Program-made: the position numbers and the translations under genes | The notes under the pieces: model-generated | The model's database searches: none | Seen by the model: only the letters and a program-made list of their open reading frames with translations | Told to the model about the DNA's origin: nothing | NCBI GenBank assembly: GCA_036274155.1 | Contig: DASUGH010000043.1 | Coordinates: 11,165-75,164, forward strand | Direction of reading: 5' to 3' | Length of the DNA: 64,000 bases | Origin: Vicinamibacterales bacterium | GTDB lineage: Bacteria > Acidobacteriota > Vicinamibacteria > Vicinamibacterales > UBA2999 | Shown: positions 55,362 through 59,289 of the stretch, piece by piece | Layout of the letters: each line of letters opens with the position of its first letter | Position numbering within the stretch: the first letter of the stretch is position 1

Positions 55362-56530
55362 CCGCCTCCGTCACCGAAAAGGACACTGCATCCGCCAGCG
55401 ATCGCCTTGGCCTCGAGCTGGGGCGGTCAGGCCCGCACACGGCCCGGGCGCGGGCCGTCCCGTGGCACGTTCGGCTCGGTCTCAGCTGGTCGTCCGGGTC
55501 GCCACCTGTCGTCCTGCTGCTCCTCATCGGCATGGCGCTCGGTCCGCAGGCGCTCGCAATCCTGTCGCCGGCCGTGCTCTCGGCTATCGACCCGGCGCTT
55601 CCTGTTGCGCTCGCGACACTCGGCGTGCAGGTCGCTCTGGAGCTCCCCTTGCGGCGTTCGGCGCTCGATCCGCGTCTGGCACGCGCGGCGTGCGTAGAGG
55701 CGGTGTTCACCGGCGTCACGGTCACGGGTGGAGCGCTGCTCGTCCTCGCGCCGGACGTCGCGCTTCCCGGCGCGGACGTGTGGCTCATCGCGATCGCCGC
55801 AGGCATCTGCGCCGCGATGTCCGCCGGCCTGCCGTCCGACACCGCCGGGGTGACCGCCGCGGCCGCCGGAGTGCGGCAACTCGACGTCGTCCTGCCGGCG
55901 TTCGCGGGTGGAATCATGCTGGCCTGGGTTCGAGAGCAGGCGATTGGTCCAGCGCTGTTGCTCGCGGCGCAGGCCGTTCTCCTCGCGCTCGTGATCGGCG
56001 TCTCGGCATGGCTGCTCCTCGTGCGAACATCTTCGGAGACCGAGCAGCGCATCTTCGGCGCCTCCGCGCTGCTCCTGCTCGGCGGCCTCGCCGACTATCT
56101 CTCACTGTCGGCATTGCTGAGCGGCCTCGTGGCGGGCACGTTCTGGCGGCTGATCGGAGGTCAGGCGGCTGACGCGATCAGGCGCGACAGCGGGCACGTT
56201 CAGCACCCGCTGCTCGTGTTCCTGCTGGTCGTCGCGGGTGCACGCAGCGCAGTGTCGACTCCCGTCCTGGGCCTCATCGCCGCGTATCCGATCCTGCGTA
56301 CGCTCGGCAAGCTCGCGGGCGCCTGGCTGGCCCGTCGAGTGACGAAGCCAGCGCTCCCGGACGATCTGGGTCTGGCACTCGTCGCGCCCGGCGTCTTCGG
56401 CATCGCGTTCAGCGTGAACGTCGTTCGCGCCGCAGGCCCCGTGTCCGATCCGCTCCTGGCTGCCGTCGTGATCGGCAGCATCGTGTCGCAGCTCATTCCG
56501 TTCCGGCGGCCGCAGGAGCCTGGCCCGTGA
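55358..56530 (+). CDS. Cation/proton antiporter (CPA)-like polytopic membrane protein
   Basis: LLLIGMALGP, LSALLSGLVAG, RTLGKLAG, about 11-12 hydrophobic segments; ATGA overlap with the upstream gene. Confidence 0.7.
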   Translation: MTASVTEKDTASASDRLGLELGRSGPHTARARAVPWHVRLGLSWSSGSPPVVLLLLIGMALGPQALAILSPAVLSAIDPALPVALATLGVQVALELPLRRSALDPRLARAACVEAVFTGVTVTGGALLVLAPDVALPGADVWLIAIAAGICAAMSAGLPSDTAGVTAAAAGVRQLDVVLPAFAGGIMLAWVREQAIGPALLLAAQAVLLALVIGVSAWLLLVRTSSETEQRIFGASALLLLGGLADYLSLSALLSGLVAGTFWRLIGGQAADAIRRDSGHVQHPLLVFLLVVAGARSAVSTPVLGLIAAYPILRTLGKLAGAWLARRVTKPALPDDLGLALVAPGVFGIAFSVNVVRAAGPVSDPLLAAVVIGSIVSQLIPFRRPQEPGP

Positions 56531-59289
56531 GGCGGCTCGCCGCACTGCTGCTCGCCGTCATCGCGATTCTGTGGGCACAAGGCCTCGGTTCGACGACGAG
56601 CGCCGGATCGGCTGGCACAGCGCTGGCAATCGGCTTCACACTGCTCGGCGCCTGGGTCGCTGGCGACGTGTTGCGCCGCCTGCAGCTTCCCCGTCTGACC
56701 GGCTACCTGCTCTTTGGCGTGCTCGTCGGCCCGTATCTCGGCAACGTGATCACCGAGTCGATGGCAGGGCAGCTCCAGGTCATTACGGGAATCGCCACGA
56801 CGCTCATTGCCCTGATCGCGGGGTTGACGCTCAACATCGAGCGGCTCGGCCGGCAGCTGAAGGCGATCGCCCGGTTGACGGCAATCATCCTTGGCGTCTC
56901 GATGTTCGGCCTCGGTGTGCTCGCCTGGATTCTCTGGCCGTGGCTTCCACTGGCTCCCGAGGCGACCGGCTGGGAGCGTCTCGTCATCGTCGTCCTGCTC
57001 GCGGTCATCGCCGTGAGCTTCTCGCCGACGATGGCCGCAGCCGTGACGACCGAGACCAGTGCGCGAGGCCGCCTCAGCGAGCTCGTGCTGCCGGTGGTCG
57101 TCCTGGCGGATCTGGCGTTGCTCTTCCTCTTCTCGCTGGCGATGCAGTTCAGCAGGGCCGTTCTGAGCAGCGGTCCCGACGAGGGCGTCGGAACCCTGGT
57201 GCGCTTCGCGTGGGAGATTGGCGGAGCCGTGGCATTCGGCAGCCTCGTCGGCGCCCTCTTTGCTCTGTATCTGCGATACATCGGACGTGAAGTCACCGTC
57301 GCGATCATCGCCGTGTGCGCCATCCTCAGCCAGGTGGGGACGACGCAGGAGTTCGAGCCGTTGCTGGCGGCCGTGGCCGCCGGGCTCGTCATCGAAAATC
57401 TTTCGATCTCACAGGGAGACGCCCTCAAGACCGCGGTCCAGCGTGGCGCAACACCGGTCCTCGTCATCTTCTTCGTCGCCGTCGGCACGTCCCTTCGTCT
57501 CGACGCGCTGGAAGTCGTCGGCTTCGCAGCCCTCGTCTTGTCGGCGATTCGTCTGGCACTCATCCGGCTGGGGATCGCCCTCGGGATTCGCGTCTCCGGC
57601 CTCGAACCGGATGCCGGACGATATTTGTGGACGGGATTGATCTCGCAGGCCGGGATCACGCTGGGCTTCGCGTCGGTTGTCGCCGCAGAGTTCGTCACCT
57701 GGGGTCCACGGTTTCAGACACTGCTCGTCGCGTTGATCGCCATTCACGAGATGACGGGGCCACTGCTTTTCCGCTATGGCCTGGCGCGCAGCGGTGAGCT
57801 CGACCCAAAGGTACCCCGGCCGCTCGTCGTGGTCTCGAATCGCGAGCCGTACCTGCATACACGCCGCCCGACCGGGCAGATCGTGGCGTCGCCGGCGCCC
57901 GGCGGGGTGGCTGTCGCGCTCGACGCGCTGATGCGGGAACGTGGCGGCGTATGGGTGGCGCACGGCGCCGGTCCGGCGGATCGTCTTGTCGTGGACGCCG
58001 GCGACAAGGTCAGGGTTCCACCCGAACATCCGTCATACGAGTTGCGCCGGCTCTGGCTCGAAGAGCCAACCTTCTCAGCGTATTACAACGGTTTTGCCAA
58101 CGAAGGCTTGTGGCCGCTATGCCATCTGGTCGACATTCGTCCGCAATTCCGGGCTGAGGACTGGGCCGCCTACAAGGAGATCAACGATCGCTTCGCCGCG
58201 GCCGTCGATGAGGAGATCGGCACCTCGAACCCGGCCGTCTTCATTCAGGATTATCACCTGGCGCTCGTAGCGCCGGCGCTCCGCAGCCGGCGCCCTGCTG
58301 CACGCACCGCCCTCTTCTGGCACATTCCGTGGCCATACCCTGATCGCCTCCGCATCTGCCCGTGGTCGCGCGAGCTTCTCGCCGGTCTGCTCTCGAACGA
58401 CCTGCTGGCGTTTCAGCTCGAGCGCGATCGCCGTCACTTTCTCCTGGCGGTGGAGGACGAGCTCGGCGCCGAGGTCGAGCCGGAGTCGTCCCGCGTGCGA
58501 TTTGGCGATCGCTACAGCACGGTCATTTCCGTTCCGATTGGCGTGGACTACGATCGGATCCAGGCCATTGCCGCCGATCCGGCACTGGCTGTCGAACAGG
58601 ATCGGCTGCGGCAGCTGTTCGATCTGCGCGCCGACATCGTTGGGATTGGCGTCGACCGTCTGGATTACACGAAGGGCATACCCGAGCGCCTGGCCGCGCT
58701 CGACGAGGTGCTTCGCCGCCGTCCGCAGCTGCGCGGGCACATTACGTTCGTGCAGATTGGCGTGCCGTCGCGCTCGTCGCTCGGCAGCTACTCCGCCATC
58801 GAATCGGAGATCGATCAGCGCATCGCCGAGCTCAACGCGCGCCACTCGGCGGGCCCGGGCTCACCGCCCGTCGTGCGATATCACAAGGTGCCGCTGACGA
58901 TTGGCAGCCTCGTGGCGCTCTACCGGATGGCCGACTTCTGCATCGTCAGCTCGCTGCACGACGGGATGAATCTGGTTGCCAAGGAATTCGTGGCCGCACG
59001 AGACGACGAGGACGGAGTGCTGGTCCTCAGCGCGCTGGCCGGTGCGGCGCAGGAGCTGACCGAAGCGCTCATCATCAACCCTTACGACGTCGAAGGCTTT
59101 GCCGACGCACTCATGGCCGCGATCGACATGGCGCCCGAGGGGCGGCGGGCGCGCATGCGTGCGATGCGGCGCGTGGTCGCCGGACGTAACGTCTTCGGCT
59201 GGGCGTCTGACATCCTGGAAGGCCTCGAGAGCCTCTGGACGAAGCCGCTGCACTACTCGGTCCGCCACTGGGAGGAAATGTCGGTGTGA
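56527..59289 (+). CDS. otsA: Fusion of a CPA-like transporter domain (aa ~1-425) and trehalose-6-phosphate synthase (GT20)
   Basis: N-terminal [24 protein letters not shown]-terminal [54 protein letters not shown]. Confidence 0.9.

Follow-up and report, generated by a model that had tools for sequence, protein, structure and literature searches.

A conserved fusion of a cation/proton antiporter-fold membrane domain to a trehalose-6-phosphate synthase in Vicinamibacterales, encoded beside a predicted, highly diverged antiporter-fold partner

Proteins of the cation/proton antiporter (CPA) fold such as KefC, SOS1, and SLC9C1 carry a large cytoplasmic domain after the last helix of the fold, and these C-terminal domains (KTN in KefC) are regulatory. 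In the field of trehalose metabolism, the OtsA-type trehalose-6-phosphate synthase (TPS) has structures from Escherichia coli (1gz5, 1uqu) and Mycobacterium thermoresistibile (5jij). According to PMC1769515, TPS can be fused to another domain of the same pathway, and the known fusions are mainly with trehalose-6-phosphate phosphatase (TPP), which agrees with what the initial annotation of the present locus had stated. Trehalose is one of the chief protectants of soil bacteria against drought and osmotic stress, and its biosynthesis is enriched in soil-preferring acidobacterial classes (PMC11245096). Here we describe a locus on a 64,000-nucleotide stretch of DNA from a Vicinamibacterales bacterium of the Acidobacteriota (assembly GCA_036274155.1, contig DASUGH010000043.1, positions 11,165 to 75,164), hereafter the window, whose own numbering is used throughout. 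In it, a single open reading frame (ORF), hereafter the fusion, joins a CPA-like membrane domain to a complete TPS of family GT20, and this ORF is a genuine, selected, and conserved gene fusion. It shares with ordinary OtsA the full GT20 fold, the substrate residues, the VVSNR start, and an otsB gene that comes next, but it has in addition a 432-residue N-terminal portion made up of the membrane domain and a linker. In TPS-TPP fusions (the PRK14501 type and eukaryotic TPS/TPP) a phosphatase lies at the C-terminus, whereas here a transporter fold lies at the N-terminus and TPP is a separate gene. Like KefC, SOS1, and SLC9C1, the fusion has a large cytoplasmic domain, as predicted, after the last CPA-fold helix, but the appended domain is a metabolic enzyme rather than a KTN/RCK, cyclic nucleotide-binding, or autoinhibitory domain.

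The fusion begins with GTG, has no stop codon inside (its stop-to-stop frame is 1038 aa), and appears in the ORF list as the single uninterrupted frame of 920 aa that had been reported initially. That a cation/H+ antiporter-like domain is joined in it to a complete synthase is borne out by Pfam: PF00999 (Na_H_Exchanger) matches residues 39-395 (E 3e-22; 79.4 bits versus a cut-off of 26.2) and PF00982 (Glyco_transf_20) matches residues 433-901 nearly at full length (E 9.2e-107; model positions 3-472 of 473). In an AlphaFold2 model built from an alignment of 59 fused sequences (mean pLDDT 78.7; pTM 0.61), the last helix of the CPA domain continues straight to the linker and stops at residue 421, and the first strand of the GT20 domain begins at residue 433. 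The short linker ahead of a VVSNR-type normal OtsA N-terminus, as initially described, is 11 residues long, and since OtsA of E. coli starts with MSRLVVVSNR, the GT20 part of the fusion starts at the usual OtsA N-terminus. Linker residues R431 and P432 are nearly invariant across the 59 fused sequences, in which conserved columns span both domains as well as the linker. An internal start that would yield free OtsA was also considered, but inspection by eye of positions 57790-57830 revealed no start codon preceded by a clear ribosome-binding site.

The region from 55300 to 60100 is contained wholly or partly in 20 public sequencing runs from 10 studies, mostly soil metagenomes. We checked the junction (57810-57825) in Logan contigs from four of these runs, each belonging to a different study, with the possible source run left out. 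Contigs of all four runs bridge it with 0 differing letters and 0 gaps (Table 1), and the listing of these contigs has no insertions or deletions anywhere in 55300-60100; the evidence is of contigs rather than reads, so rare variants could escape it. No stop codon or frameshift was found at the junction in the contigs of these four runs. As a separate observation, one contig of run X5 omits 69 bases (57750 to 57820; 23 codons, in frame) just upstream of the linker; its shorter side has only 24 matching letters, and its likely source is a relative whose tail is shorter, or else a mis-join. A word-indexed protein search with the fusion gave 7317 proteins at E ≤ 0.001. All of the 120 listed homologues cover 87-100% of the fusion (797-939 aa, 70-95% identical), both Pfam domains are in the precomputed annotation of 112 of them, and where named they are called ‘trehalose-6-phosphate synthase’ or ‘.../Kef-type K+ transport system membrane component KefB’ (or NhaP-type), with Vicinamibacterales or Acidobacteria as the named sources. 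The architecture therefore already sits in databases under automatic names. A Protein Atlas search returned ordinary GT20 clusters only, at a score of 0.77 that lies under the Atlas's own reliability mark. One candidate for a CPA domain fused to an unknown domain, P0127 (876 aa), turned out to be a fused CPA-OtsA protein (48% identical over the junction) that goes out of frame beyond about residue 511 and continues as an Arg-rich tail, a sequencing or gene-call frameshift rather than a new domain.

Together with full-length fused genes in five other genomes, the 120 fused clusters show that the homologues are not always two separate genes. The domain E-values, the coverage by all the listed homologues, and the conservation in the 59 fused sequences rule out chance as its origin, and the bridged junction, the fused homologues, and the conserved columns uphold the initial suggestion of a selected fusion rather than accidental read-through. 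The alternative that two adjacent genes were merged because a stop was missed or the sequence was in error has in its favor that the source genome is a metagenome-type assembly (213 contigs, 86.4% complete), but with the identical junction in four other runs and the fused genes elsewhere we regard this alternative as refuted, its remaining probability being negligible.

The synthase domain looks active, judged by its residues. By sequence it matches M. thermoresistibile OtsA (5jij, E 3.1e-77), and by structure, using Foldseek, 5jio (E 5.7e-29; TM 0.86, normalized to the target). In E. coli OtsA, glucose-6-phosphate is bound by Arg9, Trp40, Tyr76, Trp85, and Arg300 and UDP-glucose by Gly22, Asp130, His154, Arg262, Asp361, and Glu369 (PMC1769515). 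When the E. coli K-12 protein was added to the alignment of the 59 fused proteins, 10 of these 11 residues mapped to identical residues in the fusion. Specifically, Arg9, Tyr76, Trp85, and Arg300 correspond to R439, Y520, W529, and R749, and the six UDP-glucose residues, in the order given, to G460, D575, H599, R711, D812, and E820, each identical in 59 of 59 sequences. The mapping of Trp40 is ambiguous, the first Trp of the E. coli WFGW motif corresponding to W476, which is conserved, and the second to His479. Lys267 of E. coli OtsA, which we take to be a further site residue, corresponds to K716 and is likewise present in 59 of 59. The fused gene is the sole GT20 match in the source genome.

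To place the membrane domain, 1.84 billion representative proteins were searched with residues 1-432, giving 597 proteins at E ≤ 1e-30, mostly stand-alone proteins of about 430 aa, and a family profile (A1) was built from 86 of them. Among solved structures this profile matches NHE6 (E 4.5e-13), NapA over its full length (E 6e-11, with NapA residues 4-384 covered by the alignment), and NHE9, PaNhaP, and others. The profile search was needed, as phmmer with the single N-domain sequence gave no match among sequences in the Protein Data Bank (PDB). A weak CPA2 match on the N-terminal half (TIGR00932, 50.7 bits) lies below its cut-off of 238.3. In the AlphaFold2 model, about 13 helices follow an N-terminal one, and two of them are broken (149-177 and 361-388). 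The extra N-terminal helix, residues 2-19, precedes the part that aligns with NapA from its residue 4 onward and may serve as a signal peptide or form a fourteenth transmembrane helix. A NapA-like topology, which presumably places the C-terminus in the cytoplasm, would put the synthase domain on the cytoplasmic side. We lean towards the view that the organism's only detected trehalose-6-phosphate synthase is the cytoplasmic C-terminal domain of a CPA-fold membrane protein.

The fused domain has in common with NapA the 13-helix layout, the Ser of a broken helix at S166 (NapA S127), and the second helix-5 Asp at D195 (NapA D157). It differs in that the invariant helix-10 Arg, R342 in the fusion and invariant in the family, sits one helical turn ahead of NapA K305. 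Residues S166, P167, E176, D195, N291, R342, and Q374 are kept in the fusion as they are in 79-85 of the 85 other family members. Besides the fusion, the source genome has seven PF00999 matches, six at 121-197 bits compared with 82.8 for the fusion and the seventh a 51-position fragment at a contig end (31.6 bits). Since six stronger PF00999 proteins are encoded, ordinary antiporters are available elsewhere in the genome. A separate observation concerns the same CPA subfamily (about 32-33% identity), which forms the N-terminal domain of five proteins of 1386-1490 aa (P0225, P0229, P0245, P0253, and P0254). The C-terminal parts of four of these have weak AAA_16/AAA_22 matches (P0245 has none), and one also has a MarR-like match, so these are perhaps a different transporter-fold fusion, to a STAND-type NTPase or regulator.

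The gene directly upstream of the fusion encodes a membrane protein, MEM390, that gave nothing in Pfam even at E 10 and whose 120 listed homologues are all ‘hypothetical’, ‘uncharacterized membrane protein’, or unnamed. Profile comparison and modeling nevertheless identify it as a second, highly diverged CPA-fold protein. A profile of 38 homologues (A2) aligns by hhalign with the CPA-domain profile (probability 98.6%, E 1.3e-15, 319 columns), and in this alignment the Ser and Asp of the CPA site fall on MEM390 S155 and on the second Asp of its DLD motif. The homology is visible only between profiles, as BLASTP of MEM390 against the N-domain of the fusion was not significant (E 0.095) and the MEM390 profile had no match among PDB sequences. 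The AlphaFold2 model of MEM390 (pLDDT 84.9, pTM 0.82) gave 64 Foldseek matches at E ≤ 0.001, among them SOS1, SLC9C1, PaNhaP, NHE1/3, NHA2, KefC, and NapA (5bz2, TM 0.66/0.67). Prediction of a complex between MEM390 and the fused CPA domain reached an ipSAE of 0.62 (runs 0.60-0.63), the best of three controls being 0.00, with at least 93% of contacts common to the runs and a partner pLDDT of at least 70. Of 80 solved complexes, 58 attain this ipSAE mark, as against 2 of 110 mismatched pairs, and the prediction supports binding of MEM390 to the fusion, short of demonstrating it. There is one Rosetta-stone case: P0143 (835 aa) has a MEM390-like N-terminal half (BLAST E 6e-11 over 160 residues) and a CPA C-terminal half. 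A second candidate for such a fusion, P0158, was discarded as unsupported (BLAST E 0.011-0.086 only).

MEM390 and the fusion are the second and third of four ORFs joined by 4-bp start/stop overlaps (Table 1). The GTG of the fusion overlaps the stop of MEM390 (GTGA), and at its other end its own stop codon overlaps the OtsB start, also GTG. By this arrangement the fusion is predicted to be co-transcribed with OtsB, and MEM390 to be translationally coupled to the fusion. OtsB (TIGR00685, 108.4 bits) is above its cut-off of 68.05. The first gene encodes PDZ428, whose alignment with DegP begins only at residue 205 (DegP 211-442) and which TIGR02037 covers only at residues 208-343 (model 187-332), so that the likeness takes in just the last part of the protease domain and the two PDZ domains; neither alignment reports a match to the His/Asp region of the protease triad, and PDZ428 may be a pseudo-protease. 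Divergent from and upstream of the operon lies an ABC transporter of betaine/proline/choline type (TIGR01186 proV, 258.7 bits, with OsmF/ChoW/ProW family matches, all below equivalog cut-offs), a putative compatible-solute uptake system that, by its annotation, makes an osmoprotection cluster together with the operon. An Rfam search of the whole window gave no riboswitch near the operon, and a promoter and terminator scan of the operon strand found nothing above the shuffled expectation. The glutamate racemase gene (TIGR00067, above its cut-off) and the copper/heavy-metal P-type ATPase gene, downstream on the opposite strand, mark the operon end. The only Rfam matches in the window are RNase P RNA class A (3155-3625, minus strand, 258.6 bits) and one tRNA (38239-38311, plus strand).

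Table 1. Positions (window numbering) of the fusion, its parts, the contigs that bridge its junction, and the neighboring genes
Feature	Positions	Strand	Description and evidence
Fusion	56527..59289	+	CPA-like membrane domain + linker + GT20 trehalose-6-phosphate synthase; single ORF, 920 aa
N-terminal hydrophobic helix	56527..56583	+	residues 1-19, MRR...; modeled helix 2-19, then low-confidence loop 20-26
CPA-fold membrane domain	56527..57789	+	residues 1-421; PF00999, family profile versus NHE6/NapA, AlphaFold2 helix list
Linker	57790..57822	+	residues 422-432, 11 residues; no secondary structure in the model
GT20 trehalose-6-phosphate synthase domain	57823..59289	+	residues 433-920; PF00982, structure matches
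Junction-bridging contig, run X2 record 5	57742-57968
Junction-bridging contig, run X4 record 12	57686-58558
Junction-bridging contig, run X5 record 21	57437-58274
Junction-bridging contig, run X9 record 29	57643-57944
MEM390	55358..56530	+	390-aa membrane protein; cryptic, highly diverged paralogue with the CPA fold, predicted to pair with the fused CPA domain
PDZ428	54075..55361	+	first gene; membrane-anchored, HtrA/DegP-like, two PDZ domains; PDZ_2, PDZ, PDZ_6
OtsB	59286..60092	+	trehalose-6-phosphate phosphatase, 268 aa; PF02358 E 5.6e-25
ABC transporter, betaine/proline/choline type	51511..53810	-	ProV-like ATPase 53037-53810; fused permease and substrate-binding protein 51511-53034
Glutamate racemase	60102-60938	-
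Copper/heavy-metal P-type ATPase	61022-63505	-

The distribution of the fusion was surveyed in 401 genomes of the phylum, including the source genome (G000). Full-length fusions are present in 6 of the 37 genomes of the order: in the source genome, in 2 of the 12 other genomes of its family (G122 and G248), and in 3 of the 24 genomes of the order outside that family (G375, G228, and G028). In the 364 genomes outside the order there was none among the 150 matches listed, 78 further matches being weaker than these. In two unpublished genomes counted in these tallies, G049 and G152, all GT20 matches are free. A free OtsA with 62-66% identity to the fused domain occurs in seven genomes from three sister families, and other genomes of the source family have more distant free OtsA (43-48%). 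In the 19 loci fetched for synteny, the order PDZ428-MEM390-CPA::OtsA recurs in G375, G122, and G248 and the order MEM390-CPA::OtsA in G228 and G028, while PDZ428-MEM390-CPA with a stand-alone CPA protein occurs in G228, G009, G316, G098, G146, and G359 (where the MEM390 match is partial and in another frame). PDZ428 accompanies MEM390-CPA in 9 of the 11 loci that have both MEM390 and CPA. The stand-alone modules, for example those at L026, L027, L028, L031, and L032, keep these three genes and their order, and wherever the ORF calls are clean the genes overlap by 4 bp (L026 and L027, and PDZ-MEM390 in L032). Their CPA proteins (about 430-445 aa where the call is clean) are 48-55% identical, end 6-20 residues past a common ...AGE(I/V) tail motif, and differ from the fused form in that they have no OtsA domain and keep E101. 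OtsB follows the fusion in the source genome, in G122 (about 630 bp later), and in G028. An OtsB-like gene is divergent beside the unfused module at L026 (G228) and a PDZ428 homologue is divergent beside a free OtsA at L024 (G399), so that the link between the module and trehalose genes exceeds the fusion itself.

A quick maximum-likelihood tree of 49 OtsA domains unites all 22 fused sequences with the 7 free OtsA of the sister families in one clade (SH-aLRT 100) on a long stem (0.91), so that, compared with ordinary OtsA, the fused enzymes belong to a distinct, long-branched clade of the order. Inside this clade the 21-member main fused clade, G028, and the free group form a trichotomy, and the tree requires 2 changes. 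A tree of 48 CPA domains splits the fused sequences into two groups inside the clade of the order, and an approximately unbiased (AU) test did not reject a single fused clade (p 0.50); the group tested included P0121 and P0131, of unknown fusion state, which were added after the tree was seen. One fusion with later fission or loss, or two fusions, are both possible.

Based on the features of this locus and its relatives, we put forward a hypothetical mechanism in which MEM390 and the fused CPA domain would form a heterodimer in the membrane and the synthase would hang from the 11-residue linker at the cytoplasmic face, the place that regulatory domains occupy in KefC, SOS1, and SLC9C1. Through the linker, the conformation or ion occupancy of the CPA pair (K+ or Na+ versus H+) would be relayed to the synthase, or the reverse, and trehalose synthesis and cation handling would thereby be adjusted to one another at the membrane. 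Together with OtsA, OtsB, and the CPA pair, the PDZ protein would in this way constitute one osmotic/desiccation-stress module beside compatible-solute uptake. That the locus encodes a membrane-tethered synthase for osmotic or desiccation stress, a genuine selected fusion coupled to the CPA pair, is the proposal to which we give somewhat more credence than doubt.

Several points weigh against this proposal. In the alignment with NapA, D156-D157 correspond to A194-D195, which departs from the canonical DD/ND motif, the first Asp being Ala in the fusion and Lys in the family consensus (K-D in 44 of 85 stand-alone relatives). Position 101, a near-invariant Glu in the family (80 of 85) and the Glu of the NapA GLE motif, is Thr in the fusion and Thr or Ser in 55 of the 58 other fused sequences. 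The fused form of G028 (L018) and P0134, a fragment of a fused protein judged by its tail, carry His or Gln at position 101 and Gln at position 195, suggesting that in this second fused lineage the ion site was lost. With such a non-canonical site, transport by the fused CPA domain may be altered or lost. On the enzyme side, the fusion scores below the NCBIfam cut-offs for PRK14501 (445.7 versus 634 bits) and for the OtsA equivalog TIGR02400 (402.5 versus 564.85 bits), a comparison that uses the whole fused protein, with the matches restricted to the GT20 part (433-901/902). The close free OtsA relatives function without a membrane domain, so this enzyme clade can do without the fusion. No RNA runs are listed among the 20 public runs that contain the region. 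The predicted complex of MEM390 with the CPA domain may only mirror likeness to solved CPA homodimers. Finally, the coupling of the two domains is something that we infer, and the pTM of the model is only 0.61.

The ion-site changes also bear on another explanation, in which the CPA-like domain neither transports nor senses but just tethers the synthase to the inner membrane face, for example for the protection of lipids during drying. The repeated neutralization of carboxylates in the fused lineages is what such an anchor would allow, and the fused CPA domain is also the weakest of the full-length PF00999 matches in its genome. A passive anchor, however, would have no need of the residues that the main fused clade keeps (D195 in 57 of 58, together with S166-P167, E/D176, N291, R342, and Q374), nor of a 13-helix fold or an operon with conserved genes for a CPA-fold partner and a PDZ protein, and the fused form of G228 retains both E101 and D195. 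Stand-alone relatives of the same order keep Glu101 and have A/G-D at 194-195. Because the carboxylates are neutralized repeatedly while the rest of the site is kept, the function of the main clade would seem changed rather than abolished, and we judge a mere anchor unlikely. Less likely again is that the OtsA domain is mainly a ligand sensor which, like the KTN domain of KefC, controls the ion flux of a working CPA antiporter, here through its occupancy by UDP-glucose, glucose-6-phosphate, or trehalose-6-phosphate. The placement of the OtsA domain right after the last helix would suit such a gate, and the CPA structures that have large C-terminal cytoplasmic parts (SOS1, SLC9C1, KefC) match the fold of the family. 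Its catalytic and substrate residues are nevertheless all invariant, and since it is the only GT20 in the genome and OtsB comes next, the fused OtsA must also be a biosynthetic enzyme. A gate would moreover be one direction of coupling within our proposed mechanism and less than a full alternative to it.

That the GT20 domain instead forms another product, such as glucosylglycerol phosphate or an envelope glycolipid precursor, whose hand-over to an envelope pathway the tether would aid, is highly improbable in our estimation. The scores below the OtsA equivalog cut-offs, the additional match to the glucosylglycerol-phosphate synthase model TIGR02398 (254.3 bits), the long branch of this OtsA clade, and His479 in place of the second Trp of WFGW would fit it. 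However, the OtsA/TPS models reach 402-446 bits against 254 for TIGR02398, the ten mapped substrate residues (those named in the source cited above) and also the Lys267 site are identical to those of E. coli, and a trehalose-6-phosphate phosphatase gene scoring over its cut-off comes directly after. Returning to the coupled, membrane-tethered synthase that we favor, a more specific and rather doubtful version of it is that the four genes form an envelope-to-metabolism signaling device. Here the periplasmic HtrA-like PDZ protein and the CPA-fold heterodimer would act as a ‘transceptor’ that switches the attached synthase, without a transcriptional step, from the ionic, osmotic, or envelope state, and the loss of carboxylates (E101 to Thr/Ser, and D195 to Gln in the G028 lineage) would mark the shift from transporter to sensor.

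Neither a CPA-TPS fusion nor a heterodimeric CPA protein turned up in our literature search, and as most subscription journals were outside its coverage, absence from print is not established by it. In textbook osmoadaptation, potassium handling and trehalose synthesis are successive and separately controlled steps. In E. coli, potassium glutamate comes first and trehalose later, and potassium stimulates the synthase, which would make a coupling of the two sensible. MEM390 and the fusion would be the first heterodimeric CPA-fold pair known to us, as the predicted complex suggests, the negative search for such pairs being weak evidence. With a fold now assigned to proteins called ‘hypothetical’, the MEM390 family could deserve its own family definition. 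The essence of what is new here is a conserved, uncharacterized pairing of an ordinary synthase with a CPA fold inside a four-gene module, both parts being of known kinds. The covalent link of a cation/proton antiporter fold to the synthase would be a direct post-translational tie between ion handling and compatible-solute synthesis, one that is testable with a single protein and whose hosts are abundant soil bacteria.

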